From a virus (taxonomy: Duplodnaviria; Heunggongvirae; Uroviricota; Caudoviricetes), in IMG/VR virus record IMGVR_UViG_2880378312_000013: 54,893 bases of DNA; one strand, given 5' to 3'. Under the pieces are notes generated by a model. It had not been told where the DNA came from. It worked only from the letters and a program-made list of their open reading frames with translations, and ran no database searches. Both the position numbers and the translations under genes were made by a program. Below, piece after piece: positions 1,043 to 53,525 of this stretch. Positions within the stretch are counted from its first letter, which is position 1, and every line of letters begins with the position of its first letter.

Positions 1043-1575
1043 ACCAATAATCGCCACCAACACAATGATTTTAATACATAAATTAAAATAGAAGATTTAA
1101 ACTACACACACCCCTATACACATTGGTGAAGGCGTTCGCTTTCCGCGCATTCTCAAGGCAGAAAAAACTTTTTTTGGGGGAAAACTGTTCATACTACTCA
1201 TTGTGTTTTTTTTCATTAATATTCAAAAAGATATGAAATTAACGATTGATAAGAAGTGAACACTTTACTGTTCACCTTGACTGATTAATAAGTGCATAAA
1301 AACCTAATTTTTGAGCACGGAAGGTATTTGTTCCTTACCCCATTTTTTCTCTTTAGTCCAGTACAACAAAAAATGCGCCCAACAGAAAACTGTTTTGAAT
1401 TTAAATGCAATCGCTTTGTAGTGATTGTAACGTAAGTTGATTTGATGGGTGCGATTTTGTTTAGCGATAATGGTATGTTGTAAAAATCATTTCGTTGCAA
1501 TAAAATTGCATCGCTACATTTTATAGACAATATCAATTAAATTTTAATACTCATTATTAATTTTGAGGCTAACAA

Positions 1576-2532
1576 GTGACTAGTTATTCAAACTTTTCCA
1601 ATCAAATAAAAGAAACCATCAATAATAAATTCGATCATGAAATTCATGATTGGGACATTATAAAAAACTCAATCACAACTTTAATAAATAAAAATATCCA
1701 TGGTGCAGGTAGAAATATCGTTGATTTTATAGATTTAGGTAACTGGGATTTTATTTCAAACTTTTCCTTTGATGACTCTACAAGAAGACTTGAATTAGAG
1801 TGGCACCCCAATGATAAATTCCATATATATATTGAGTCCGTTGTGTTTGTCGAGTTTAATGACACTATATATGCTTTCTTAAAGGGATACTATCACAATC
1901 AGTTATCTCTAAATAGAATATATAATACAAAATGCTCTTCATGTTCATTTGAAAACTCAGGTTCTTATATGGTAGACGTTTATAGAACGGTTAAAAGAGT
2001 AAATGAGACAATCCAGACCCCAAATATAAATTGCTATACTACATGTATTTTAACAAGGCCCGCAAATGGTCATGTTACATCTACAGGCTTCTCACGAAAC
2101 CTCATGGATGCGATAAATATTTCATTAGCAGAGCACAAAATAGCCTCTTTACATAATGAAGTCATGAGTATTGAGGAATATGATCGTGATTCTTTACAAG
2201 AGAAAGGAAATACTGCCAGGAGATATTTAGAATATATTCTCATGCTTGTTAATATTCGTATAATGCATTTAAACAACGTTCAATACCAAGAGCAAATGCT
2301 AGGTAGTTTAGTTTCTGTTATTGAGGCTCTGGACTATGAACCATTAATGAAAAATGATGTTGAAATTACAAAGGACATCCTTAATGCTTGCAGCCACCAC
2401 GGGGGGGTTAGAATTGAAAAGAAAGATGTAATTTTTTCTTTGGAAGTTATTGAAAACTTAATTAAAGCCATAAAGAAAACCGACATAAATAAATTACAAC
2501 TCGATGGGATGTTTAAATCAATTCAAAAATAA
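1576..2532 (+). CDS. hypothetical protein, AT-rich orphan ORF (candidate island cargo)
   Basis: 318-aa ORF (GTG start) with strongly AT-biased codon usage unlike flanking genes; sits between the alpha-like primase and the candidate att repeat; no motif recognised. Confidence 0.5.
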   Translation: MTSYSNFSNQIKETINNKFDHEIHDWDIIKNSITTLINKNIHGAGRNIVDFIDLGNWDFISNFSFDDSTRRLELEWHPNDKFHIYIESVVFVEFNDTIYAFLKGYYHNQLSLNRIYNTKCSSCSFENSGSYMVDVYRTVKRVNETIQTPNINCYTTCILTRPANGHVTSTGFSRNLMDAINISLAEHKIASLHNEVMSIEEYDRDSLQEKGNTARRYLEYILMLVNIRIMHLNNVQYQEQMLGSLVSVIEALDYEPLMKNDVEITKDILNACSHHGGVRIEKKDVIFSLEVIENLIKAIKKTDINKLQLDGMFKSIQK

Positions 2533-2664
2533 ACATCATCTAACAATGAATTAGATGCATTTTCCGCTGACGCCTTAGCATATAACTTTTAAATTTTATC
2601 GATATATATTTTGAGATAATTTCCTGTAGCGGATTTAAGACCGGCACAGCCGGTCTTAGGTCAG

Positions 2665-5055
2665 TTATTTCGCTGCAAACTCATCGCATTTTGGCAACCA
2701 GTCAGCATTGCTTTCCTCTCTTAGGGCCAGATTAGTCTGCATTCCTTGATTGGTCCGTCGTTTCTCATACTGCAGCCCATATTCCTTGAGCATTAACGGT
2801 AGCCCCTTGCCAAACATGGTCAGACTGAGCGTATTTTTATAGCCGTTAGCCTCCATGTAGACCAGATAGGCATGGTAGAGGTAAGTTCGAGGCTGACGTG
2901 GAACAATATTAGCGTTCCCCATAAACATGCCCGTGGTGTCAGGTAGGACCTCAAGGTAGCCGCAAAAATCAAAAGCTGAATCAGCATCACGTTTGATGGT
3001 GAGCGCTTCATCGGAGTTCTGCTGTGACTGAAGCAATGTCCTGGCACTCATTGGGTCGCTGAAACGCTGCATAAGCTGGCGAACAATCACCGCTAGCTCA
3101 CTGGCAATTTTCTCTTTGAGCTGGGTATCGCGTTCCTCCGGGGCTATCTGGTCGGGGAAATGCAGGATCACCCTTCGGCGTGAAACTCCACCACTACGAT
3201 CAGTGAAGCGCATCGGATTATTGTTCACAGCCAGGATGACCGCCGGGATGTGGGTTGAATAGGCGTTCTGATATTTGGGATCAACGGATACCGCATCGCC
3301 GCCAGTGATGGCTTTTAGTCCGGCCCCGTCACCGCTCCACTTTTCCTGGTCGGGAAGTCGAATCAGTGAAAAACCTATTAACGCAGCTCGTTCTCTTGGC
3401 GACTCAAGCATTTCAATGGTTGCCGAGGTCGCGTTATCTTCACCCGCCAGCATGGTTGCTATTTCAGCAAGAATACTCTTTCCACTTCCGCCAGGGCCAG
3501 TGACCTCCAGAAACAGCTGCCAGTCATAACGGTTAGCCAGCACCATAAACAATGCAGCCAGAATAATGTCCCGTTTTTCAGGATTAAAACCTGCGGCACG
3601 ATCCAGCCAGCGCCAGAATGCCGGGGCATGGGTTTCCAGTGACTCACCGTCAACGGGCTGCGTGTAATCCACCTCGCACAGCGTACGTAACCAGTGCTTC
3701 TTATCGTGCGGGCTGAACAATCCTGTCCGGGTATCGAGCACACCGTTGCGAAATCCGATAAGTTGCCGCGCCGGATTCTGCTGTTGCGGAACGATCAGTT
3801 TGAGGGTTTCCACGAGAGACGCAATTTTCGCGGATGAAAAAGGTGCGTCGAGGCGCTGAAACAGCGCAGCGACATCACGGGCAAAATCGGCGTAATAGAT
3901 AACTTTCCAGGCCCCCGCCTCATAGCGTGAAAGGAGCTGCCCGTTCGGGTCTACTGCCAGTGAATTTTTATAGTGATCCACTACCCTCTGCGCTTTTTCG
4001 CTGACGCTCAGCGCGGTAAATTCAGCTTCGCTCATTGTGTCGAAGGGGCTGGCAACAGCTGGTTTTATTACTTCATGAATTGCATGCCGGGTGGCTTCTT
4101 CGCCGTTTTGCGTGAATGCATCGTTCCAGTCACCAAACACAGGCGGGAGCGCCATTGTGCAATTGCAGGCCCCGGTAACAGCTGCGCCCCTTGTTTGCCC
4201 CGCACCGTTGAGATCGCGGTCAGCAGCAATAATTATCTGGTGCGTTGGGTACTCACTGCAGGCAATGCTCGCCAGGGAAAGGAAATTGACGGACGAAAAG
4301 GCCACCATGACAGCATCGCCAGTCAGATAGTTGATAGTAAGTGCGGTGGCATATCCTTCCGCTATCCAGAGCCGTTTGGCTGCTTTGGCAGTACCTTCAA
4401 CCAGGTAAAAGGCATTCTTAACCTGACCGCCTTTAAGGAAGCATTTGCCCCCATTAGCGTTGATTAACTGCAGATTTACCAGCTCTCCATCTGCATACAA
4501 TGGAACGACAAGATCTCCCGCGCGAAATGCCACACCACCGACTTTATGCATAGCGGTTAATTCCCGGCAAGGCAGTGCAGGAAACCCTTTACTCGTCAGA
4601 TAGGCATTGCCAGTGGTCTGGCGGGACTTATCAAACAAACGGGCAGCCAGCACTGCTGCAGCTTTTCTCCCGTCCTCTTTTTCAGGAGAACCAGATTCAA
4701 GCATTCCCTGAGATACTGGCAGCAGGTTTCCGATAATGCCGTTTATTCTGTCTGCCGCTTCACTAATGCCTACATCCAGTACTTTACTTACAAGCGCCAG
4801 GCCATCACCTGCCCCGCACTGGTTACAGAACCACGTTCCCCGCCCTTCCTGGTCATCAAATCGAAAGCGGTCTTTCCCGGCACAGACCGGGCAGGGCTGG
4901 TGCCGATTTTTCAGTACATTTACGCCCAGCGCAGGTAAAATTCTTGACCAGTGACCCCGAGCTGCTTTCTCAGCCTGGCTAACTTTCATTCCTGACATTG
5001 TGCGGCCCTCCTTAGTGCAGCGCTGGTTTGTTGAGGTGACGGGAACAAAGTTCAT
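2665..5055 (-). CDS. P4 alpha-like primase/helicase (zinc-binding primase + D5-type NTPase)
   Basis: CxxC...CxxC zinc motif ([10 protein letters not shown]...CNQCGAGDG) and P-loop GPGGSGKS; true start may be the internal Met (MSGMKVSQ) about 57 nt downstream of the ORF start. Confidence 0.8.
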
Positions 5056-5335
5056 CCATGACCGTCATTCCGAGCAGTGAGAGAACCGGACAGGCTTTAA
5101 GCGGCCCCGACTCCATCAGATCCGAAAGCAACGCGCAGGCAATTTCCAGCCCTCTTTGCTGCCCATGCTGGCGCAGATAGAACCCTTCCAGCTCGCGGGC
5201 TATGGCATCTTCAAGTTCAGCGAGCGTCAGGCCGGAATAACGTTCCTGATGATTGCTTAGAGCCAGCCAGGCACAGGCAACGGCACGGCGATACAGAGCG
5301 GCACGAAGTGCCAGAAGAGATTCACAGCATATCAT
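5012..5335 (-). CDS. hypothetical protein (satellite early region)
   Basis: 107-aa ORF co-oriented and nearly contiguous with the primase gene. Confidence 0.4.
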
Positions 5336-5556
5336 CAGGCCACCTCCGCATTCATCAGGTCGTCATGGCAGCGTTGCACCACTCCATCCAGTTGCTCTGT
5401 CATCAGATAAATGAGGGAAACCAGTTGTTCGCATTGGGCACCTGCTGGCTTTTCATAACAGTCCTGCAGGGCTGCCATGCCAGTTACATACTCACCCACA
5501 TTGCGTAAATGTTTCAGCCTTACAACATCGTCGTAGGAAATCTCAAACTGGTTCAT
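5335..5556 (-). CDS. hypothetical protein (satellite early region)
   Basis: 73-aa ORF in operon-like arrangement. Confidence 0.4.
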
Positions 5557-6110
5557 AGCGTCACCTCCCCGGCAGGCAGCCGTGCAGAAAGGGAGAGTAC
5601 ATAATCTCGGACTAGCAAACGGCGCGCGGAACGCTCATCGCAGGAGACAGTGCGAAGCATACAGATGCGGGGGTGAGTGTCAGCACGGCGGATTGCGGCA
5701 AACACAAAGACATATTGCGGGTGTGACGGGGTGAGGATTGTAGCCATGATGGCAGCCTCCAATAAGTAGCGGTTATTGCTACCACCGGAAACGCCAATTT
5801 CACTGGTGGCAGCCCGAACGGGGTTGGCGTAACCGGCCTTATTGGAAACCGGCCAGCCCGAAGGCTGCCCCGCCCGGACTACCATTATCTCGATAGAACC
5901 ATGGTGTAAGCATAAACACCACAGCCCTGAAAATGGTTGTGCCTGAGCTACGACGTAAAAAAAGACGCAAGGGGCGTCAATTGTCGCCAATAAGTTATAC
6001 GGAACGCCAATTCCGGCTGCCGATTTTGCGACAGCGGAAAAACTATACCTGGAAATGACGACAGTAAGCAAGCCAGAATAAAGGTATTTAATGTATGCAG
6101 GTATCATCAT
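5553..6110 (-). CDS. hypothetical protein; real gene probably only the 3' third
   Basis: 185-aa ORF whose N-terminal part is low-complexity; a likely internal start at [11 protein letters not shown] would give about 64 aa. Confidence 0.3.
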
Positions 6111-6367
6111 GCATCACATCCCCGCCCACGGGCGCTGATGCGGTCCGCCATCCATGCGCTGACCTCAGACTGTGCCCAGGCGACATTTTTACCGCCAAGC
6201 GGGATCTGCTTCGGAAACGCATCGCGGCTGATCAGGTCGTAAACGGTCGAACGGGACAACCCGCATAAGTGCATCACCTCAGGCAGGCGTAAAAATCGCT
6301 CATGATGGTTCGATACAGGAAATAATGGCGCAGCAGGAGCTGGCGCAGACACAGAAATATTACGCAT
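6107..6367 (-). CDS. AlpA-family phage transcriptional regulator
   Basis: Small HTH protein with [20 protein letters not shown] motif characteristic of AlpA/prophage regulatory proteins. Confidence 0.7.
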
Positions 6368-7212
6368 TTATCTACCCTCTTTAATTTCCACAACAGTCCG
6401 GATGAATTTATCCGGGTTCAGGTAGTTCCTTATTATGTGTATATAAACCACCTGCGCACGCATTTTTTATTTAGCGTCACATATTGATTTTATGGAATTT
6501 AAAGCCCGATTAAACCATATAAAATGACATAATAAATACCATGCCTGCGGACTATAAATACAGGAGCATTAATAGGAACTACCATTCACCCAGGGTTTAC
6601 TATCCTATGGGTCATTGCACCTGATAGTGCTAACCCCACCGCCAATACAGCAAGGCAGTACAACTTCTACACGAGGCCTTGCATTGCAGGCCCCAATTTC
6701 CGGGCATATTTTTGAATCGCATCCAACTTATAAACATTGGGCCTGCATAAAAACCTTGATATTAAATAACATCACCTTAAATCGTAAAATATATCCGAAT
6801 GAATCCATAAAGAACCGGACAGATCTAGTTTTATAAAAATCAGTATGAAATGCAACACCATGGCCAGAGGCGAAAATGTTATTCCCCGGCAAAAACATGC
6901 AGTCTATTTATGTGCCTGTTGAATACTCCTGAATAAGGGTGAATAGTGGTGAGGAGCAAAAAACAAATAGCTACGAGGAATAAAAAAACCACCCATTATG
7001 AAAAAATACCATAAATAATTTTATTCCCATGTGAACAGTTATGAACAGTCGATGAATACTGCCATGCCAACCCTTCACCTTATAACCTTCTGTATTACCT
7101 ATTTTTTTTACCTAAGTGAATAGTAGTGAATAGTTAAGGTAAGTCTGAAACAGCCTTAGTTAAACGAGGCCTTTTCTGGCTAGCCAAAAGAGGTCCGGGG
7201 CGGTTCAGTCTT

Positions 7213-7230
7213 TGTCTTGTCGCTCGCACA
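7213..7230 (+). promoter_or_regulatory. TGT-N12-ACA dyad, candidate Ogr/delta-dependent late promoter element
   Basis: tgtcttgtcgctcgcaca about 70-90 nt upstream of the sid-like start; matches the P2/P4 late-promoter activator-site pattern. Confidence 0.45.
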
Positions 7231-7300
7231 ATGGCGTTCAATGGCAGCTTTGTATGCATCACAGCACAATTGACACCACGACAAACCACTAGGTGCTGAC

Positions 7301-8053
7301 ATGACAATCCCAGAACAGAACAATAACCCGATCGTTGAAATTTCTATCCCTGTTTCGACGCAACAGGCGCTTGAGAAAGTGAATGCCACCAAATCTGCAT
7401 GGCTTGAAGCACGTCGTCAGCAAAAAGCGGCAGCGGATAATATTGCGACAATCCGCCAGCGCCGCGCTGAAATGGAAGCCACGACGAACGCCCTGAATGA
7501 GGAGTGGCGCACGCTATTTCGTGAAAGTCAGGGCGTAGTCTCAAAGGAAATGAAAAAACTGCGCACGGAAATTGCGCTGGGACGAGAAACGCTTGAGGAT
7601 TTTGATGAGCTGCTGGCGGCTCAGGAAAGCGAAAATGCACTTTTGCCGCAGGAGGCTGCGGAATTAGCCGGAAAGTATATCCACGCGCACGACACCCTTG
7701 TGGGTATTCGCGCAAAACAAATCTGGGAAGATTTTATGCAGTCGCATGGAAAAGCACTAATCCAGACACTAAGCCTGCTCAAATCAACAATGGGCAGGGA
7801 AGCCAGCGCAGTTGTCGGTGTGGTGCATTCAGTTAATGACCCGGACACACTGCTGAAAGATTTTATTCATAAACATATCACCAGACCGGCTCTGACTAAC
7901 GATGCGATGCCCGAACAGGACCCCGTGTTTAAACTGGCGGGAGTTGCCCCGGATTATGCGGCCCGTCTGGATTTCAGTAATAAACTCTCTCCAGCAGCTA
8001 TGCATAAAATGAAGGTTCGTCAGGAACGTGCTGAGAAGGAGAAAGCAGTATGA
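7301..8053 (+). CDS. Sid-like capsid size determination protein (putative)
   Basis: 250-aa helical/coiled-coil protein first in a sid-psu-delta-like operon; similarity to P4 Sid is from recollection only. Confidence 0.45.
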   Translation: MTIPEQNNNPIVEISIPVSTQQALEKVNATKSAWLEARRQQKAAADNIATIRQRRAEMEATTNALNEEWRTLFRESQGVVSKEMKKLRTEIALGRETLEDFDELLAAQESENALLPQEAAELAGKYIHAHDTLVGIRAKQIWEDFMQSHGKALIQTLSLLKSTMGREASAVVGVVHSVNDPDTLLKDFIHKHITRPALTNDAMPEQDPVFKLAGVAPDYAARLDFSNKLSPAAMHKMKVRQERAEKEKAV

Positions 8054-8601
8054 TGGCCCGAGTCACTCCAGACCAAGCGCTTATCAGTTTTAGAAATGCC
8101 CGTATTCTGTGGGCTGGACATAGTGAGAGCCGAAAAGCCGTTGAACAACAGATAGAATCACTCCTCACTGCCATGGAAAAACCAGCAGATTATGCTCGAC
8201 AGCTCGAATTACAGCGGGAACATCTGGATGTGCTGAAATGGCAAATTAACTGTGCTGCGCGCGAATGCATTTACTCGCAGCATCAACTGATGGAGGCCTG
8301 CACAGAAGACGCTCTCAGCAATTTTATGCAGGCGAATGGAGCAGCCCTGACATCTGCACTGGCTCCGTTCCTGAAGGGGCGCGGAGGGGTTGACGTTGCG
8401 TCCCGTATATTACGCAATGCTCTGGTTCGCCAGCTGGCAATAACACCGCCTGAAATTGCCGGGGATTATCGTATGATTCTGGATGAATCCGGTGTGATGC
8501 CTGACCCCATGATGGTTCGTGATTGCCAGAGCTCTTACACCCCTGCACAACAACTGCGCTTTCAGCAACGTCTGGATTACATTAACGGCATGCAGGAGTA
8601 A
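8050..8601 (+). CDS. Psu-like polarity suppression protein (putative)
   Basis: 183 aa, overlaps the upstream gene by 4 nt; segment FMQANGAALTSALAPFL resembles P4 Psu as I recall it. Confidence 0.5.
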   Translation: MMARVTPDQALISFRNARILWAGHSESRKAVEQQIESLLTAMEKPADYARQLELQREHLDVLKWQINCAARECIYSQHQLMEACTEDALSNFMQANGAALTSALAPFLKGRGGVDVASRILRNALVRQLAITPPEIAGDYRMILDESGVMPDPMMVRDCQSSYTPAQQLRFQQRLDYINGMQE

Positions 8602-8606
8602 TATTA

Positions 8607-8879
8607 ATGGCACTTAAATGTCCCGAATGCGGTACGACGGCACACGCCAGAACCTCCGCCTATGAAGCACCATCGGTTAAACGCTCATGGTATCAGTGCC
8701 AGAATCTTGAATGTTCCTACACATTTACCGCACTGGAAAGTGTGGATACGATAATCATGAAGCCCCGGCGCAATGAACAGGAATCAGAGAAAGCACAAAT
8801 GCCGGAAAAACAACAGCAAACTCTCAATCGCTATGGCTCCGCGTCAAAGCTGTCAAGCCGTCAGCAAATTCCTGTCTGA
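8607..8879 (+). CDS. Ogr/Delta-family zinc-finger late-gene activator
   Basis: CPECG...HARTS...YQCQNLECSYTF pattern matches the Ogr/Delta C4 zinc finger. Confidence 0.75.
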   Translation: MALKCPECGTTAHARTSAYEAPSVKRSWYQCQNLECSYTFTALESVDTIIMKPRRNEQESEKAQMPEKQQQTLNRYGSASKLSSRQQIPV

Positions 8880-8900
8880 TTAGCAAAAAAAGCCCACGTA

Positions 8901-8927
8901 ATCCCGGTCCAGTACTGGGATTTTTTA
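8901..8927 (+). terminator. possible intrinsic terminator after the delta-like gene
   Basis: Short hairpin (atccc...gggat around palindrome ccagtactgg) followed by a T6 run; weak stem. Confidence 0.35.
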
Positions 8928-9288
8928 CGCCTTTTCCCTGGCTGGCCTGAGAGCGCATGAGTGCATGTCTATAGCGCATGAAAACGCATGATTCTCATGC
9001 ACCATTTTTGACGCGAAAGCCCTTGTGTGGTGGCTTCTGAGACGATTTGCGGAATGCATGAAAACCAGTCTGTTAAGCGAAGCGAGCAGGCGTGGGGGGC
9101 TGCGCGCGCTAAGGGGTTAGATTATAAAATATCAAACGCCGGTGAGATCCATTATTGTGGAACCACCCGAAGGAAGTGTAGAGGCGAAAGTACCCAAAAT
9201 AATTTTGCAAATTATTTAGAAATGAACTGAGCGCTCGAAACGAAATATAATTTCGAGCACCCCAATTAGCAGTTATATTTTTAATGTA

Positions 9289-9855
9289 TTAAACAGGATA
9301 AAAACCAGAGCTTCCATTCTTATTTAAGTTATGGATTTTATTTGCATCATTAATTTTTATTTGGAACGTCGGACCTTTATTCTCAAGAATTACAATCTGG
9401 AAATTATAGTCCCTTTTGATTAATGCGTGATAAAATGAATCACTGAGACTGACGCTATTAACATCCGATAGAGAACCCCCTCTATCTTTATCAAAGTGCG
9501 TCACTAATGGACTATCAAGCACAACAAATCCAATGAATGGATTCCCTTTTCTTGATAAAAATTCCGCAAAGCAAATGGTAAATATAGCATGCATTACTGC
9601 ACGGGTACCTTTACCAAACATTCCTCGGCGTTTCCCATTGATATTAAAGTCATATGTATCTTCGTCAAATCGCACTTTGTTATCTTTAGAATTTTCAAAA
9701 TTTATATCATTCAAAAAGTCTTGCATCGCTATTTCTATATCATACAAATCAGCTACTGTTAAGGAGTCAAAGTCCTCGGCGGAGTATTTAAGTTCGTCAA
9801 CATCATCTTCTTTATCTTGTAATGAAGATAGAATGCTATGTTTTGTGTGATCCAT
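9289..9855 (-). CDS. C-terminal head segment of an SMC-like ABC ATPase (Walker B-like region)
   Basis: 188 aa; hydrophobic strand followed by Asp (FIGFVVLDSPL) resembling Walker B but without the canonical Glu; start overlaps the upstream stop as TAATG. Confidence 0.55.
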   Translation of the reverse strand: MDHTKHSILSSLQDKEDDVDELKYSAEDFDSLTVADLYDIEIAMQDFLNDINFENSKDNKVRFDEDTYDFNINGKRRGMFGKGTRAVMHAIFTICFAEFLSRKGNPFIGFVVLDSPLVTHFDKDRGGSLSDVNSVSLSDSFYHALIKRDYNFQIVILENKGPTFQIKINDANKIHNLNKNGSSGFYPV

Positions 9856-10445
9856 TAAAAGATTGTCTTTATATTCATAAAGTGATTCAAGAGATGAATG
9901 TATTGTTTTATATTTTTATCTTCTAACGTCTTAAAATCACTTTTTTCTGATTGATAAATTTCATTAACATCATTTTTTCTTAACATAATTAATTCATGTT
10001 CGCGAACATTAGATCCGATTGATTCAATTAATCCTTTCAGCTGGCTTTTGATTTTCAATTTTTCTGCATTACACGACAAAAAACAATCATCATATGATAT
10101 TTCATTTTCTTTTTTTTGCGGTGTATTACAGAACTCACAATAAATATCTGCAAAATTATTTAAATAGAAATTCGCCTGTGATACAACATCTATTCTTTGT
10201 AGATCTATAAAGTATTGGTCTTTAAGAAGACTAAATCTTTCAATGAGTAATGATAAGTATTTTTCCCTGTCACTGATTGAATATAATTCATCACTTAACT
10301 CTTTTAATAATTGCTTCTTATCATCAAGTGCATCAACAATACCTTTCAATATATCTTTCGATGATTCAATATCTTGCTCTACTTTCTCAAGTTCTCTTGA
10401 AACAATGACTTGATCATATTCAGGATAAATTAATTGCGCTTTCAA
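9855..10445 (-). CDS. coiled-coil middle segment of the SMC-like ABC ATPase
   Basis: 196 aa, highly charged heptad-like sequence, TTG start; in the same frame as the upstream ORF and separated from it by a single TAA. Confidence 0.55.
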   Translation of the reverse strand: MKAQLIYPEYDQVIVSRELEKVEQDIESSKDILKGIVDALDDKKQLLKELSDELYSISDREKYLSLLIERFSLLKDQYFIDLQRIDVVSQANFYLNNFADIYCEFCNTPQKKENEISYDDCFLSCNAEKLKIKSQLKGLIESIGSNVREHELIMLRKNDVNEIYQSEKSDFKTLEDKNIKQYIHLLNHFMNIKTIF

Positions 10446-10475
10446 TTCCTCATAAATATTTGCAATTTGATTTTT

Positions 10476-11135
10476 TTAAAAATATCTTGCTTTTTTATTT
10501 GGTTTTTCTGCTAAGGAGTTAGTATCATCTCTCTGAGTTAAAAGGAATTTAAATTCAGACTTTCTTTTTGTCTCCTCGCTAGGAATATCAGAAAGAATTA
10601 ACGACTTCTCAGTTAACACTCTTAATTCATCAATACAAAAAAATTCAAAAACATTATTAAGATTAAATTTATGAAGAGTATTACTTAAGTTTGTTCTTAC
10701 TTTAGCCTCTTTGAAATTCAACCTACCATAAAAGTATGATGAAAAACTCTTTTTAGACGAAGCACTTTTGGAAAAAACCATCAACAGATTAGCTTCACTA
10801 ACATTTTCAATGCTCGAATCATATAATCTGTAATGGGCGCTATCCTGAAGAGACCTCTCAATTGTCATTACCCTACCTTGAAAATTAAATTCCAGATAGG
10901 CTAAATCATAACCTTGAGCATGATCGATATCTTTATTTTTTAGTTTTTCACTCCCTAATAAATATCGAATCAAATAATATATGTATGTTTTTCCAGAGTC
11001 AGAACCACCATATAAAATAGTCAATTTAGAACCAAATTCAATTATAGCATCTAATTTATTGAATCCGGTTACCTTTATTTTTCTGAACGTAAAAAAATTG
11101 TCATTCATAATTAAATTCCATATCATATTTGCCAA
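10476..11135 (-). CDS. N-terminal head segment of the SMC-like ABC ATPase (Walker A)
   Basis: FRKIKVTGFNKLDAIIEFGSKLTILYGGSDSGKTYI matches the N-terminal strand plus P-loop of SMC/Rad50/RecF-like ATPases; likely true start at MNDNFF. Confidence 0.65.
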   Translation of the reverse strand: MANMIWNLIMNDNFFTFRKIKVTGFNKLDAIIEFGSKLTILYGGSDSGKTYIYYLIRYLLGSEKLKNKDIDHAQGYDLAYLEFNFQGRVMTIERSLQDSAHYRLYDSSIENVSEANLLMVFSKSASSKKSFSSYFYGRLNFKEAKVRTNLSNTLHKFNLNNVFEFFCIDELRVLTEKSLILSDIPSEETKRKSEFKFLLTQRDDTNSLAEKPNKKARYF

Positions 11136-11574
11136 TTTTATTTTTTATAATTGATTGCAACTGCTCATCAGGAATATCACTATATAACTTAACCACCAAA
11201 TTTATATTATGCTCCATCTGCGCAACATATTCATTATGTAGAGAATTTGTAAATGCATATGTTTTTTCAGAAGCTTTATATACAAAACCACGATGTGTAT
11301 AAATTTTTGAGGCTAGTTCATAGCCTTGCAACAAAGCCAATGATTCTAAAACAATCTCTCGTTTTAGGGCTAACTGAGCATCTCTACGGGGTATTGGAGG
11401 ATGAAGACTAATCTCTTCAGGTAAAAAATCCTTAAGATTTACTAAAATAAAATCAAAACAAATAAGCCGTTCAAGGCTTAATGAAGAAGGATAAATAGCG
11501 ACGAGCACTTTCGCCATTCGACATGCCACTTCTAAACTTGAATTATAAATTCTAACCATTATCTCACCGTCCAA
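11101..11574 (-). CDS. small helical protein, candidate middle component of a three-gene defence cassette
   Basis: 157 aa, TTG start, overlaps both neighbours; position matches LmuC/ABC-3C middle components. Confidence 0.45.
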   Translation of the reverse strand: MDGEIMVRIYNSSLEVACRMAKVLVAIYPSSLSLERLICFDFILVNLKDFLPEEISLHPPIPRRDAQLALKREIVLESLALLQGYELASKIYTHRGFVYKASEKTYAFTNSLHNEYVAQMEHNINLVVKLYSDIPDEQLQSIIKNKIGKYDMEFNYE

Positions 11575-12176
11575 ATTACTTCACCATCATTAACCAAATG
11601 ATGGCATATTCCTTTTTTATCATTTGCTTCACATATTTTTGATAGTACTGAATGTGCAATTGGTGTCAGAACAGCCTGCTTCAAGACTGCATTACACCTA
11701 ATAAATGCATAATTATGGTCTTCATAAAAGACGGGTTCAATTGAAGATGAAATGTAACATTTCAATGCTTTGAATACATCATCTTTAAATACTTCGCGGA
11801 CAAAAACCTCAAGCGAAGATGCAAAATAAAAATCATTTCTACTATTATTAAAGTGTCGTCTGTATGGATCATCAAGCTCTAAGAAAGAACTATAAGTTTT
11901 ATTTCCATGCTCTGAATAGGCTTGAAGCAGTGCATTAACATATACAGACTCTTTTTTTGAATTGTATGTTGGAATTTCATTTGGAGGGATTCTCACGACA
12001 TACAGCTCGTTAAAGTACTTAAAATAAAGGTGTGTATTTGCAATATCATTTAAAATCAATGATAAGGGTAGAGAGTAAAAAATACTAAAATCAAAATCCT
12101 CAATATATTTTTTTATTTCATCATCTAATGGAATATCAATCTTTTTAGTTATTTTTTTGAAATTGCTGAATCCCAT
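11559..12176 (-). CDS. C-terminal part of the candidate effector protein (frameshifted relative to the upstream ORF)
   Basis: 205 aa; overlaps the upstream ORF by 28 nt in another frame across an A7 tract. Confidence 0.5.
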   Translation of the reverse strand: MGFSNFKKITKKIDIPLDDEIKKYIEDFDFSIFYSLPLSLILNDIANTHLYFKYFNELYVVRIPPNEIPTYNSKKESVYVNALLQAYSEHGNKTYSSFLELDDPYRRHFNNSRNDFYFASSLEVFVREVFKDDVFKALKCYISSSIEPVFYEDHNYAFIRCNAVLKQAVLTPIAHSVLSKICEANDKKGICHHLVNDGEVIWTVR

Positions 12177-12565
12177 GAATCAAGGACTGCTTTTTTAAGC
12201 TCGTTTTTATTTTTCAATAAATTAGAAAATGTAGTAGATAAATCATAGGGTGCCACAAAAAAGTACTTCTGAGGGATGGGATAATCACCATTCAGAGTAA
12301 AATAGATAAGTTTTCCAAACTCAACTACAACATCAGAGAACCCTAAACTTTTTTTGTACAGTTTGCATTGATAATTATCCCAAGAATAACCTTCTACGTT
12401 AGGATCCGATTTATATCCAACAACGTCTCTACCTTTATCTCCAGCTCCTCCCAAACGTTCGCTCCACGGGTAATCATCTGATTTACAGACAATAAGCCAA
12501 TCATGGACAAATACCTCCCATTGTTCATCATCCCATGTCAATATTTCCGAAAGTGGTTGAGACAC
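12149..12565 (-). CDS. N-terminal part of the candidate effector, PD-(D/E)xK / Mrr-like nuclease-fold motifs
   Basis: 138 aa, GTG start; GAGDKGRDVVGY followed by YQCK resembles the D...(E/Q)xK core of restriction-endonuclease-like folds; assignment is tentative. Confidence 0.45.
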   Translation of the reverse strand: MSQPLSEILTWDDEQWEVFVHDWLIVCKSDDYPWSERLGGAGDKGRDVVGYKSDPNVEGYSWDNYQCKLYKKSLGFSDVVVEFGKLIYFTLNGDYPIPQKYFFVAPYDLSTTFSNLLKNKNELKKAVLDSWDSAISKK

Positions 12566-12568
12566 AAA

Positions 12569-13801
12569 TTAACTCCTTTTTAGTCTTTCAAATATCAAAT
12601 TACTGTACCAGTCCATCATAGACTTCCTTCCACTAAAATATTGAGCATGGTTATAAGTCCCCCTAATAGAATTTTTATCTACATGAGCCAACTGGATTTC
12701 AATCCAAGCACTCTCAAAACCTTGCTCATGCAGGATTGTAGAAAGGGTATGACGAAAACCATGTCCAGTGACTTTTCCTCCATACCCAATACGCTTAATG
12801 GCTTGATTTATACTCGCTTCGCTCATTGGCCTATTCGGATCGTTCCGCCCTGGAAAAACATAACGATAGTTCCCTGTCATGATCTTGAGTTCATTGAGTA
12901 AATCTACCGCTTGAGATGATAAGGGCACAAGATGTGGCCTACGCATTTTCATCCTTTCAGCAGGAATTTCCCAAATAGCGTTATCCAGATCAAATTCTTG
13001 CCATAATGCCGCGCGTAATTCGATGGTTCTCACACCCGTAATCATCAGTAATTTCGTGGCTATCTGGACAAGCTTACTCCCGGAGTAACCCTCTAAGGCA
13101 CGTAGAAAATCAGGTATCTCATCAGCTTTTAGGAATGGGAAATGATTGGATTGGTGTACTTCGAGAGCGCTGGAGAGATCAGCCGCAGGATTGTACTCCG
13201 CCCTACCCGTTGCAATTGCGTAGCGAAACACTTCGGAGCAACGCTGCCGCACTTTGCGCATTTTCTCCAACGCACCACGTTTCTCAATTTTACGCAGAAC
13301 GTTCAGCAGCTCTAGCGGTTTAATCTCTCCCACAGGCCTTGTTCCGACATAAGGAAAAATGTCGTTCTTAAACGCTTCCATGATGTCTGATGCATATCCC
13401 GCCGACCATTTAGCAGATTTAAGTTGATGCCACTCTCTGGCTATCTTTTCGAAGGCGTTCTCTGACTCTGTTTGCATAGCTAGCTTTTGCTCTTTTCGAA
13501 CCTCACTAGGGTTCTTTCCTTCTGCCACAAGTTTTCGAGCTTCATCACGACGGGAACGAGCATCGGCAAGGGTGATCGTTGGGTAAACACCAAGCGAGAT
13601 CATTTTGGGTTTGCCGGCATAGCGATAGCGGAACCGCCAACTCTTGCTTCCATTAGGTTCTATAAGTAATGACAACCCTAGCCCATCTCCAAATGTATAG
13701 GCTTTAGCTTCAGGCTTAGCGCGGCGAATCTGCATATCGTTTAAAGGCATGTGTATAGGAATCCAGACCGAACAGGAACATATACACAATCCTATACACA
13801 T
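12569..13801 (-). CDS. P4-type tyrosine integrase
   Basis: 410-aa ORF with C-terminal catalytic region (HGFRHT...Y); sits next to the partial tRNA-Thr repeat, co-oriented with it; probable start at MPLNDMQ. Confidence 0.9.
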   Translation of the reverse strand: MCIGLCICSCSVWIPIHMPLNDMQIRRAKPEAKAYTFGDGLGLSLLIEPNGSKSWRFRYRYAGKPKMISLGVYPTITLADARSRRDEARKLVAEGKNPSEVRKEQKLAMQTESENAFEKIAREWHQLKSAKWSAGYASDIMEAFKNDIFPYVGTRPVGEIKPLELLNVLRKIEKRGALEKMRKVRQRCSEVFRYAIATGRAEYNPAADLSSALEVHQSNHFPFLKADEIPDFLRALEGYSGSKLVQIATKLLMITGVRTIELRAALWQEFDLDNAIWEIPAERMKMRRPHLVPLSSQAVDLLNELKIMTGNYRYVFPGRNDPNRPMSEASINQAIKRIGYGGKVTGHGFRHTLSTILHEQGFESAWIEIQLAHVDKNSIRGTYNHAQYFSGRKSMMDWYSNLIFERLKRS

Positions 13802-13912
13802 TCAGTACCGGATTCTACTGGATGGTTACGGACTACTATGGACTTAAAAGAATAAAAAATGTTATAAATCAGAGATTTTATGGACTAATACGGACGTTTG
13901 AGGAAGTTGAGA

Positions 13913-13958
13913 TGGTGCCGATAATAGGAGTCGAACCTACGACCTTCGCATTACGAAT
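13913..13958 (-). repeat. 46-bp direct repeat of the thrW 3' end (att site shared by both elements)
   Basis: tggtgccgataataggagtcgaacctacgaccttcgcattacgaat is identical to the 3' part of the intact tRNA-Thr at 53450-53495, then diverges. Confidence 0.8.
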
Positions 13959-14233
13959 TATAAGAATCCGCTTCTAATTCAAAGCATTACCCCATCAACA
14001 CTGCGCTCACACGTCCCACCACATCAAAACATGTAAAGCCTTGCAAGCCATTGCGAGGCCTTATGTGTCTCAGTTTTGTCCCACCTTGTATTACGACTTG
14101 CATAGCCAATGAAGATAAACGTGACGACAAACGGCGCAGCAGTCTTCTTTTCTTTCACGACTTCTCCAGCATGCATACCTTTCTGCCATGACTGAAGTGA
14201 ATGCCTGTTATGAGCGAGGATTGGCCCAGATGA

Positions 14234-14671
14234 ATCGCCCTGGACTGTTGCGATCGTGAAGCCATAGACTGGGCCGCAAGCACGGGAGGTTACGATAAAG
14301 CGACAGTGCAGGATGTCATGTTAGGAGCGATAGAAAAACGCTTTGGCGATAAAGTACCGGAACAGTCCATCCAGTGGCTGACAGATAACGGTTCAGCGTA
14401 TAGAGCGCATGAAACACGGCAGTTCGCCAGAGAGTTGAATCTGGAGCCCTGCACAACGGCAATCAGCAGTCCTCAGAGTAATGGAATTGCAGAAAGGTTC
14501 GTGAAAACGATGAAGGAAGACTATATCGCGTTCATGCCGAAACCGAATGTAAGAACGGCATTGCATAATCTTGCAGTGGCGATCGAACATTACAATGAAA
14601 ACCATCCGCACAGTGCGTTGGGTTATCGCTCTCCGCGAGAATATCGACGTCAGCGGGTAACGTTAACTTAA
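14234..14671 (+). pseudogene. IS2-like (IS3 family) transposase orfB remnant
   Basis: Translation [23 protein letters not shown]...[14 protein letters not shown]...[14 protein letters not shown] matches the integrase-core C-terminus of IS2 InsD as I recall it; in-frame stop upstream and no orfA. Confidence 0.6.
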
Positions 14672-14712: not shown

Positions 14713-15465
14713 TCAGATTCCCTGGTGAGTAAGAATTTTACTTTCTGAACTCCTCTGAGAGTATTGACTTGGAGAAACACCAAAATAACGTCTAAATACA
14801 TAAGTAAAGTATGAGACACTGGCATAACCACAGACCTTAGCTACTTTACTAATAGGATAACAACGAGTGCTGAGTAAATATTCAGCCATTTGCATCCTCT
14901 CATCAAGTATGATCTTACTGAATGATACCCCCTCTTCTTTCAATTTCCTCTTTAGTAAACTTTCGCTGAGATATAATCTTGATGATATATCCTTAAGACG
15001 CCATGGTGCAGATAAATCCGTATGAATAATCGTTTTAACTTTAGCCCCTGTGCTTTTCAAACATCCAAACAGAAATACTCCAAATTGTTTTTCAGAAGAA
15101 AATGCAGAGAGACATGTAAAAGCAATAGACTCATCAAAAATTTCTATGTATTCAGCACAGTGATTAGCCCAACTAATTAATCCTTTAATTAAACTGAAGT
15201 CAGCAAAGTTTATTTTTAAATAAGATGGATATTCCCTACAATCAGAAATATCCCTTAAGTTATTAGCTTTCAAATAGCGACTAATAAACTCAGCGCCAAA
15301 ATCCGCCACTATCACTCTTTCAGGATATGTCAGGAAAAAATCTCTAGAGCTAGAGTCGACAAGTACAGATGAACCTCTCTCCAGAAACACACTCTCTTTT
15401 CCGAAATAAACATCAAAGGACTCCAAAATCAATATAACTGAACATGTAGTTGCCATATCATCCAC
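14713..15465 (-). CDS. AraC-family transcriptional regulator
   Basis: 250 aa, C-terminal AraC-type HTH (ISKVAKVCGYASVSYFTYVFRRYFGVSPSQY); gene is markedly AT-rich. Confidence 0.8.
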   Translation of the reverse strand: MDDMATTCSVILILESFDVYFGKESVFLERGSSVLVDSSSRDFFLTYPERVIVADFGAEFISRYLKANNLRDISDCREYPSYLKINFADFSLIKGLISWANHCAEYIEIFDESIAFTCLSAFSSEKQFGVFLFGCLKSTGAKVKTIIHTDLSAPWRLKDISSRLYLSESLLKRKLKEEGVSFSKIILDERMQMAEYLLSTRCYPISKVAKVCGYASVSYFTYVFRRYFGVSPSQYSQRSSESKILTHQGI

Positions 15466-53449: not shown

Positions 53450-53525
53450 TGGTGCCGATAATAGGAGTCGAACCTACGACCTTCGCATTACGAATGCGCT
53501 GCTCTACCAACTGAGCTATATCGGC
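53450..53525 (-). tRNA. thrW: tRNA-Thr (anticodon CGU)
   Basis: Reverse complement gives GCCGATATAGCTCAGTTGGTAGAGCAGCGCATTCGTAATGCGAAGGTCGTAGGTTCGACTCCTATTATCGGCACCA with intact cloverleaf and CCA. Confidence 0.9.

Follow-up and report, generated by a model that had tools for sequence, protein, structure and literature searches.

Six open reading frames of the P4-like prophage Sp2 of Escherichia coli O157:H7 are pieces of three Lamassu-type genes, very probably in decay

We looked at a stretch of viral DNA of 54,893 nucleotides (nt) assigned to the Caudoviricetes (IMG/VR record IMGVR_UViG_2880378312_000013; the whole stretch is called the window below), and in it at an AT-rich cassette at positions 9289-12565 that carries genes of the Lamassu defence family. 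A first-pass annotation, made from the sequence alone, had described there six overlapping minus-strand open reading frames (ORFs) in a segment much richer in AT than its flanks. The ORF listing gave the same six ORFs, overlapping or abutting one another, at the same coordinates (Table 1), and the contrast in composition was also found (31% GC against 45-46%; in fractions, 0.309 for 9289-12565, 0.451 for the integrase gene int, 0.463 for the rest of Sp2, the prophage that holds the cassette, and 0.488 for the whole window). All six ORFs matched PADLOC Lamassu profiles, with E-values from 1.6e-21 to 8.4e-50, a similarity much stronger than chance would give. Since the ORF fragments tile single PADLOC profiles, the six ORFs correspond to three genes, in the order lmuA-lmuC-lmuB, which two -1 frameshifts and a TAA codon in frame have broken up. 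The gene junctions are coupled, the start of lmuC overlapping the stop of lmuA (TAATG) and its stop overlapping the start of lmuB (ATGAATGA). Judged from these profile matches, the cassette is a short, or type II, Lamassu of the ABC-three component (ABC-3C) kind with a predicted Mrr-type effector. RefSeq/PGAP already names two of the coding sequences (CDSs) 'ABC-three component system' proteins. A Lamassu system has all three of its genes intact, and here lmuA and lmuB are broken, so that the locus is a Lamassu by descent and not a complete system.

The effector gene, lmuA, is spread over two ORFs. The PADLOC LmuA profile PDLC03852 was matched over positions 10-140 by ORF1 (E 9e-41) and over positions 141-333 by ORF2 (E 3.9e-44), and the insertion of one A gives a 335-amino acid (aa) LmuA that is collinear with the intact 335-aa orthologues of three related loci, one from Proteus (L003) and two from Pantoea (L004, L005). 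The repaired protein has the variable N-terminal effector and the conserved C-terminal domain that characterize LmuA, a fusion that the frameshift severs in the window. Its C-terminal part matched Pfam CTD6 (7.7e-30), an ABC-3C family. In the N-terminal part, the motif GAGDKGRD...YQCK, which the first-pass annotation had read as PD-(D/E)xK/Mrr-like, is present in ORF1; residues D43, D47, Q66, C67, K68, E82, and K85 were invariant in an alignment of 36 LmuA sequences and are kept in the window fragment, which thus contains the catalytic D...(E/Q)xK motif as D43/D47...Q66-C-K68. An AlphaFold model of the 138-aa fragment (predicted local distance difference test, pLDDT, 92) had an alpha-beta-beta-beta-alpha-beta core (H-E-E-E-H-E), and the best Foldseek neighbours in the PDB were MspJI, FokI, Cap4, AF1548, and EndoMS, all of the PD-(D/E)xK superfamily, with weak scores (E >= 1e-3, template modelling score about 0.5; probabilities of the top matches 0.93-1.00). 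Pfam returned no match for the N-terminal domain of the window LmuA, not even Mrr_cat (PF04471), at E <= 10. Mrr_cat was matched by 5 of the 36 aligned relatives at E <= 0.01, the best at 1.6e-6, and three database relatives carry a precomputed PF04471 assignment. Because the window protein itself has no Pfam match, the Mrr assignment was drawn from the relatives and from the fold, which support a Mrr-like N-terminal domain outside strict Pfam membership, as the first-pass annotation had proposed. PDB sequence searches with LmuA, either as a single sequence or as the 36-sequence profile, gave only noise, with no solved relative detectable by sequence.

The middle gene, lmuC, is the only intact gene of the three and lies between lmuA and lmuB, as is the rule for this component. 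Its product matched PADLOC LmuC PDLC03871 (2.5e-36) and Pfam MC2 (6e-30, above the gathering score), is named 'ABC-three component system middle component 2' by PGAP, and has the same length as the orthologue of L005. The PDB sequence search with LmuC also gave noise only and no solved relative detectable by sequence.

The ATPase gene, lmuB, is in three pieces, which together tile the PADLOC LmuB profile PDLC03863 (ORF4 over positions 3-199, E 8.4e-50; ORF5 over 231-412, E 1.6e-21; ORF6 over 428-608, E 5.1e-37). A protein search with the conceptually repaired LmuB led to its intact relatives, two of which are proteins of 606 aa, from Proteus mirabilis (P0001, 87% identity) and Pantoea alhagi (P0002, 75% identity), collinear with the repaired product, while a clade at about 45% identity was found in Salmonella, Serratia, Klebsiella, Citrobacter, Yersinia, and Aeromonas. 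An ABC ATPase of about 600 aa had been expected at this place, and the repaired length agrees with it. The two halves of its head stand at the N- and C-termini and are separated by an antiparallel coiled coil that has CxxC at its apex; the protein thus contains the Walker A motif, the coiled-coil insert, and the DUF3732-type C-terminal half of an SMC/Rad50-like LmuB of this size. The record of strain Sakai annotates lmuB as a pseudogene. In a model of the intact Proteus protein P0001 (pLDDT 86), the two head halves are joined by helices 233-317 and 339-439, and the solved Lamassu LmuB chains 9uxh, 9hqu, 9hqx, 9ux7, and 9nyg ranked ahead of Rad50/SMC proteins. The LmuB family profile matched the solved DUF3732/LmuB protein 9hqu at 3.6e-14. 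Profile searches had been proposed by the first-pass annotation as a check, and a lack of matches to ABC/SMC head profiles would have made it drop its reading; the PADLOC and the Pfam CTD6 and MC2 matches were significant, DUF3732 on the last LmuB fragment scored 23.2 bits, under the 25-bit cut-off, and the LmuB profile was matched by all three fragments. The effector/middle/SMC-like layout, which had been likened to Lamassu or ABC-3C systems, is in line with the PADLOC LmuA, LmuC, and LmuB matches, and the statement that no described family could be assigned no longer holds, the family being short or type II Lamassu with a Mrr-type effector.

The three motifs of LmuB were examined in the family alignments. 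In the Walker A sequence GGSDSGKT (ORF4), G34, S36, G39, and K40 are invariant in the LmuB family, and the substitutions K40A in V. cholerae (PMC12663957) and K40I in Salmonella (10.1101/2025.03.14.643221) abolish function. Both cysteines of the CxxC motif, C324 and C327, are invariant and stand in the P0001 model within the loop between the two long helices; zinc hooks have been described for many short LmuB proteins (PMC12663957), and the Salmonella system needs its zinc hook, K40, and head engagement (10.1101/2025.03.14.643221). The Walker B strand VVLDSP (ORF6) lacks the usual Glu, which had been taken as a hint of divergence or decay. Residues D532, S533, and P534 were invariant in alignments of 14 and 28 sequences, the solved Salmonella LmuB 9hqu has ILDQP at the aligned position, and VVLDS fits the short-Lamassu Walker B consensus hhhhD[Q/S/T/E] (Haudiquet et al., PMC12663957). 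The Salmonella study reports the same variant Walker B together with slow, DNA-stimulated ATP hydrolysis (10.1101/2025.03.14.643221). Judging from these alignments, a Walker B without Glu is the norm of the family, and the hint of decay drawn from it falls away.

The fold of LmuB is common to Rad50/SbcC and SMC proteins, and the other Pfam matches were the generic AAA_23 and weak, sub-threshold AAA_15 and SMC_N, as would also be seen if the cassette were a partition, conjugation, or DNA-repair ABC/SMC module serving the satellite outside defence. The best profile and structure matches are specifically to Lamassu LmuB, the partners belong to the ABC-3C-specific families CTD6 and MC2, a partner of the Mre11/SbcD, kleisin, or ParB-like kind is missing, the cassette stands in an established P4 defence hotspot (PMC9122126), and Lamassu-Mrr has been validated as anti-phage (bioRxiv 10.1101/2022.05.11.491447). 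We regard such a non-defence module as extremely improbable.

Table 1. Features of the cassette and its surroundings (window coordinates unless another locus is named)
Feature	Position	Strand	Details
lmuA pseudogene	11559-12565	-	GTG start at 12565, preceded by AAGGAG; conceptual product 335 aa
lmuA fragment 1, predicted Mrr-like nuclease domain	12149-12565	-	138 aa
lmuC, ABC-3C middle component 2	11101-11559	-	152 aa from ATG at 11559; intact
lmuB pseudogene	9289-11108	-	conceptual product 606 aa
Walker A / P-loop GGSDSGKT	10986-11009	-	residues 34-41, Lys40
CxxC zinc-hook motif, Cys324-Glu-Phe-Cys327	10128-10139	-	coiled-coil apex
Walker B strand VVLDSP	9508-9525	-	Asp then Ser-Pro, no Glu
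Lesion 1, lmuA -1 frameshift	12152-12158	-	poly-A run: 7 A, 8 A needed
Lesion 2, lmuB nonsense, Leu211 TTA>TAA	10476-10478	-	window base 10477
Lesion 3, lmuB -1 frameshift	9913-9917	-	poly-A run: 5 A, 6 A needed; about codon 398
IS1203/IS629 insertion (strain M1300706002)	L011 1827-3040		corresponds to about 10600-10650 of the window
ORF1	12149-12565	-	138 aa
ORF2	11559-12176	-	205 aa
ORF3	11101-11574	-	157 aa
ORF4	10476-11135	-	219 aa
ORF5	9855-10445	-	196 aa
ORF6	9289-9855	-	188 aa
sid-like gene, Psu fold	7301-8053	+	Pfam Psu 7.1e-10
psu	8050-8601	+	Pfam Psu 4.8e-42
ogr/delta	8607-8879	+	Pfam Ogr_Delta 1e-16
P4-type tyrosine integrase, int (intS in Sakai)	12569-13750	-	Pfam Arm-DNA-bind_3, Phage_int_M, Phage_integrase
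Terminator-like hairpin, 13-bp stem	9229-9262	-	27 nt 3' of the lmuB stop; consensus scan, pattern match only

The three lesions were located by comparison with the intact orthologues. The loss of one A in lmuA (lesion 1) generates a TAA at 12149-12151, at a site across which the intact LmuA orthologues read uninterrupted ...DSWDSAISKKISKK... In lmuB, column 211, where the window has its nonsense codon (lesion 2), is a Leu in the close relatives (F-L-K), and past the second frameshift (lesion 3) frame 0 reads KYKTIHSSLESLYEYKDNLLMDH, in agreement with KKYKKIHLLLESLYEYKDNLLMDY of the Proteus protein P0001. Once the three sites are repaired, LmuA and LmuB have lengths of exactly 335 and 606 aa. 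A T run at about 9857, near the stop of ORF5, was also considered as the site of the lmuB frameshift and was discarded since the alignment with P0001 places it at 9913-9917. Sequencing error in homopolymers was likewise rejected as the cause of the frameshifts, the same alleles being found in 308 complete genomes including the independently annotated Sakai and EDL933.

The fate of the cassette was then followed across strains. The region 9200-12650 of the window is 100% identical to that of E. coli O157:H7 Sakai, of EDL933, and of about 300 further complete genomes. The repaired A8 allele of lmuA had an exact match in none of 309 records (308 E. coli genomes), all of which fell in the 95-99% identity band, and the repaired A6 allele of lmuB had none in the 308 E. 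coli genomes. A distant blastn search of 5,426 E. coli genomes returned nothing outside the clone at >=99% identity and no intact E. coli copy; the intact copies were obtained from the protein search alone. The nonsense codon is distributed differently: O55:H7 DEC5D has TTA at lmuB codon 211, the TTA allele was found in 10 records (eight of O55:H7 type, O157 493/89, and LSU61), and the remaining 299 records are not identical to the TTA allele, which is consistent with TAA. O55:H7 and the early O157 lineages are without the nonsense codon. Of the broken alleles, that of the sorbitol-fermenting O157 strain 493/89 is the least decayed: it has no lesion but the two frameshifts and leaves an N-terminal LmuB fragment of 417 aa. 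One further nucleotide, at 9941, is deleted in O55:H7 DEC5D, and the fragments annotated in TB182A follow the same pattern. All three 1-nt deletions of the lineage, two shared and one of O55:H7 only, are in A runs. Over 3451 bases, 8 substitutions and 1 indel separate the DEC5D allele from the window; the substitutions between the O157 and O55 cassettes are 6 missense, 1 nonsense, and 1 synonymous, and this ratio of 7 non-synonymous to 1 synonymous, although the numbers are small, fits relaxed constraint. In three O157:H7 strains (M1300706002, 6535NalR, and 6535WT), IS1203/IS629 is inserted inside the N-terminal lmuB fragment, and deletions have removed some or most of the cassette from strains 4276 and F3113. 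Altogether, two frameshifts predate the split of O55:H7 and O157:H7, and the nonsense codon, the insertions, and the deletions were added later in sublineages. Two shared lesions, with others accumulating lineage by lineage, mark a pseudogene and not a split architecture under selection. The choice left by the first-pass annotation between a divergent variant and a decaying copy is thereby settled for the decaying copy, given three lesions against intact orthologues, and the divergent variant is dropped. We consider it highly probable that the cassette is a decayed Lamassu with a Mrr-type effector, carried as cargo in the psu/delta-int hotspot of Sp2 and drifting towards loss. Of some 310 copies of the cassette, one is assigned to a record whose type is given as plasmid, and two places are reported in a single genome; these could be misassemblies or real transposition or duplication.

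The position of the deletions in A runs of 5-7 nt, for the two shared frameshifts as well as for the extra one of O55:H7, is also what would be seen if poly-A slippage now and then restored full-length LmuA and LmuB, giving a phase-variable or slippage-rescued Lamassu with low-dose or bistable abortive infection. In the 3.3 kb of the cassette there are 21 homopolymer runs of A or T that are 6 nt or longer, and in 493/89 and O55:H7 no lesion is outside A/T runs. The 'ON' length was found at either tract in 0 of 308 genomes, whereas true phase-variable tracts are polymorphic between isolates. Moreover, the tracts are short, slippage being inefficient at lengths such as A7 and A5, two or three independent slips would be needed simultaneously, and slippage cannot rescue the TAA nonsense codon of typical O157:H7. 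Such a rescue is very unlikely in our judgement.

The locus has been reported before. In the Domainator study (NAR 2024, PMC11754643), it appears as 'Lamassu-var', cluster 1, the most frequent cluster of the P4-like hotspot, with 259 E. coli loci of '3 to 9 CDSs', and is described as a previously undescribed active relative of type II Lamassu. These authors cloned the locus of O55:H7 TB182A (CP038295:4116517-4120474; PMC11754643). We found that this segment (L007) is the present locus, with the same fragmented ORFs and the same psu/delta and int flanks; it shares with the O157 records the proteins WP_001303996.1 (the CTD6 fragment), WP_001185340.1 (ogr/delta), and WP_000968317.1 (psu), and DEC5D, the O55:H7 allele that was aligned to the window, carries the same annotated proteins. 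The cloned allele has both shared frameshifts and a third, this 1-nt deletion being its own, and is without the nonsense codon of the O157:H7 allele of the window. The words frameshift, pseudogene, and truncation are absent from the main text of the Domainator paper (PMC11754643). The system is thus of a known kind that has been annotated and published before, and what the cassette shows is decay and not divergence. Another system, from O157:H7 FRIK944, reported to have no activity (Rousset et al.), was considered as a possible match to this cassette and was rejected, Table S2B giving it as a cytidine deaminase system of another P4 element.

Several points weigh against decay. The chief one is that the cloned O55:H7 allele led to smaller plaques of T2, T4, T6, and RB69 (PMC11754643), and this phenotype, if real and specific, would mean that some activity survives fragmentation. 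The broken cassette is kept undeleted at >99% identity in almost all O55:H7/O157:H7 genomes. The ATG of ORF6 overlaps the stop of ORF5, so that the fragments are translatable in principle, and split Rad50 head halves can reassemble in vitro. Finally, the CTD6/MC2 subtype is not known to have a solved structure or an experiment of its own, and PDB sequence searches gave no counterpart.

These points could be accommodated by a functional fragmented 'Lamassu-var', the pieces of which would be translated and would together still form, or work as, an anti-phage system of weak effect; the fragments have kept all catalytic residues of the nuclease as well as the two half-sites of the ATPase, and the locus is retained in about 300 genomes. 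However, the phenotype is weak and visible only at the highest dilutions, and the main text has no catalytic-mutant control (PMC11754643). The cloned insert started at the lmuA start codon 'without any promoters' (PMC11754643), the natural upstream region being int. Since the insert was promoterless and the main text lacks mutant controls, the weak phenotype is not strong evidence of function. Moreover, the pattern of breaks varies by sublineage, as drift predicts and unlike a selected architecture, the CTD6 fragment is no longer joined to the effector domain, whose tethering and oligomerisation depend on it, the only start of ORF5 is a TTG 30 nt past the stop, and clonal descent, with >=99% identity in all records, explains the retention. 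The broken cassette is common in databases because the O55:H7/O157:H7 clone has been heavily sequenced. A working fragmented system therefore seems quite unlikely to us. A broader form of the idea, in which the free 138-aa nuclease domain acts alone, or rare poly-A slippage restores full-length LmuA and LmuB, so that a residual or stochastic anti-phage activity remains, is hardly better placed and stays unlikely; if true, it would explain the T-even plaque phenotype and would represent a natural split or phase-variable SMC-based immune system. In all, the plaque phenotype leaves residual activity a slim chance, and decay remains our reading of the cassette.

The intact orthologues have LmuA, LmuC, and LmuB of 335, 152, and 606 aa. 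The first-pass annotation had suggested a comparison with the same slot of related islands, and intact orthologues were found in the int/delta slot of Pantoea and Serratia satellites. In Pantoea (L004 and L005), the gene order is proBA - int - lmuA - lmuC - lmuB - ogr/delta - psu - sid-like - alpA - ash - primase, and in Serratia (L009), a like layout lies between int and ogr/delta, with no gene annotated as Psu there. In the three closest loci (L003, L004, and L005), LmuA reads as an unbroken 335-aa frame from a GTG. The annotated LmuA is only 145 or 201 aa long in Proteus mirabilis (L003 9113-9550) and Pantoea alhagi (L004 8945-9550), the full frames starting from about L003 8543 and L004 8543; the Mrr-like domain is invisible in these annotations because the GTG start was overlooked in gene calling. 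The intact Proteus operon is preceded, at L003 8300-8540, only by a stop-riddled remnant of the 3' end of a P4-type integrase, and an rve-family transposase lies downstream of the operon. The Proteus locus is a defective satellite that keeps an intact defence operon, the opposite pattern to that of O157:H7. In Salmonella enterica (L008 5546-8830), a Lamassu-Mrr/CTD6/MC2 operon of the 45%-identity clade is found outside P4-like satellites, in an island with an Antirestrict-family gene, DUF932, a CbeA antitoxin, AlpA, and a different integrase. Its presence in this island indicates that the operon moves between types of element.

In Sakai, the cassette falls within 'prophage Sp2, P4-like phage', which corresponds to about 1043-13929 of the window and lies in tandem with the lambda-like Sp1. 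The int gene, co-directional with lmuA and directly upstream of it, forms one border of the hotspot, and the sid-like/psu/ogr/delta block (7301-8879) forms the opposite one; the primase and regulators of Sp2 are upstream in the Sakai annotation. The slot between a delta/Ogr-like gene and a P4-type integrase, where the first-pass annotation had placed the cassette, is thus confirmed by the Pfam assignments of the flanks together with the Sakai annotation of Sp2. Cargo between psu(/delta) and int, in the presence of P4 core genes, corresponds to the P4 defence hotspot as defined in PMC9122126. The P4-like label is to be read with a caveat: the identity of this Psu to that of P4 is only about 31%, and the Domainator authors, who give this value, do not count these elements as P4-like proper (PMC11754643).

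The GTG start of lmuA lies 3 nt past the stop of int (12569-12571), and its AAGGAG Shine-Dalgarno sequence is within the 3' end of int; from this placement the cassette looks co-transcribed with int or driven from inside it. The predicted hairpin downstream of lmuB is likely to be the 3' end of the operon. A promoter scan gave 22 sigma-70-like sites against 19.9 +/- 4.3 in shuffled sequence, which is no excess and is uninformative on expression. Elsewhere in the window, a tRNA-Thr(CGU) was found at the far end (53450-53525), which we take to be thrW from its position beside proBA. An ORF at 13822-13977 runs through an apparent partial tRNA-like copy of the attachment site at the Sp2/Sp1 junction. 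Just outside Sp2, a partial IS3-family transposase (14306-14671; an ISEc48 fragment in the Sakai annotation) is adjoined by an AT-rich gene (about 35% GC) of 250 aa at 14713-15465, annotated as 'transcription regulator' in Sakai.

How the intact ancestor most likely worked can be proposed by analogy with the solved and tested Lamassu systems (PMC12663957, 10.1101/2025.03.14.643221, 10.1101/2025.06.23.660979). Given what was said above of the CTD6/MC2 subtype, the mechanism was transferred from Cap4-type systems. Two LmuB protomers would be joined via their coiled coils and the CxxC zinc hook, and this dimer together with LmuC would bind the C-terminal domain (here CTD6) of a single LmuA monomer and so keep the monomer inactive. 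When a phage or plasmid invades, its DNA ends or replication intermediates would be sensed by the LmuB heads and by LmuC. ATP binding and hydrolysis, the latter proposed to be slow because the Walker B has no Glu, would then cause a rearrangement that releases LmuA. Freed LmuA would oligomerise via its C-terminal domain, bringing together the PD-(D/E)xK domains (D43/D47...Q66-x-K68), and the oligomer would cut DNA indiscriminately, so that the infected cell would die (abortive infection). For Lamassu systems in E. coli, including Lamassu-Mrr, an ATPase mutant, an effector mutant, and deletion of lmuC each abolish defence (bioRxiv 10.1101/2022.05.11.491447). In the window, lmuA is split between its nuclease domain and CTD6, and lmuB has one break that separates Walker A from the coiled coil and another ahead of the half that contains the signature and Walker B. 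With the effector severed from its tether and LmuB cut twice, the machine cannot assemble, and the cassette is most likely a dead remnant.

Compared with known systems, the cassette is closest to short, or type II, Lamassu-Mrr (Millman et al. 2022; Haudiquet et al. 2025), with the same lmuA-lmuC-lmuB order and overlapping start and stop codons, an LmuB of about 600 aa with Walker A GxxxxGK[ST], Walker B hhhhD[Q/S/T/E], a short coiled coil, and one CxxC, a small LmuC, and an LmuA made of an N-terminal nuclease and a C-terminal tethering domain. It differs from an intact short Lamassu in that two of its three genes are inactivated by three lesions, and from Lamassu-Mrr in that the Mrr_cat match is made by relatives and not by the window LmuA itself. 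With V. cholerae DdmABC (Cap4 effector) and Salmonella LmuACB, for which the solved structures are 9ny5/9nyg/9uxh and 9hqu/9hqx, it shares the fold and architecture of LmuB, Lys40, the Walker B without Glu, a catalytic PD-(D/E)xK Lys at K68 (Salmonella LmuA and window LmuA), and, by analogy, probably the three-component logic of sequestering, sensing DNA ends, releasing, and oligomerising. However, LmuB is only about 14% identical to theirs in structural alignments, LmuA and LmuC have no detectable sequence relation to the solved ones, and the effector domain is Mrr-like here whereas it is Cap4/DUF4297 in these two systems. V. cholerae LmuB is without a zinc hook (PMC12663957), in contrast to the LmuB family of the window. 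Rad50-Mre11 and SbcCD, the proposed evolutionary ancestor of Lamassu, have similar ABC head halves, an antiparallel coiled coil, a CxxC zinc hook, and DNA-end recognition; unlike them, the cassette has no Mre11/SbcD partner, its coiled coil is much shorter, its Walker B has no Glu, and its ATPase is partnered with LmuC and a releasable toxic effector.

The main value of these results is corrective: 'Lamassu-var', with its 259 loci, is an ordinary three-gene Lamassu-Mrr broken by frameshifts, and given these frameshifts its published phenotype merits re-examination. For annotation, the six CDSs called 'hypothetical' or 'AAA ATPase' in roughly 300 O157:H7 RefSeq genomes would be better merged into pseudogenes, and the 'missing' Walker B Glu of Lamassu ATPases is not to be taken as degeneration. 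The intact Pantoea, Serratia, Proteus, and Salmonella orthologues are material for work on the Mrr and CTD6/MC2 subtype, which has no solved structure. A 2026 survey in Nucleic Acids Research found that <1% of the pseudogenes in P4 satellites resemble defence genes and argued that defence systems are swapped before they decay; the present locus is a clear and datable counter-example to this argument, and its poly-A deletions indicate that defence genes acquired horizontally and rich in AT contain many sites inherently at risk of frameshift.

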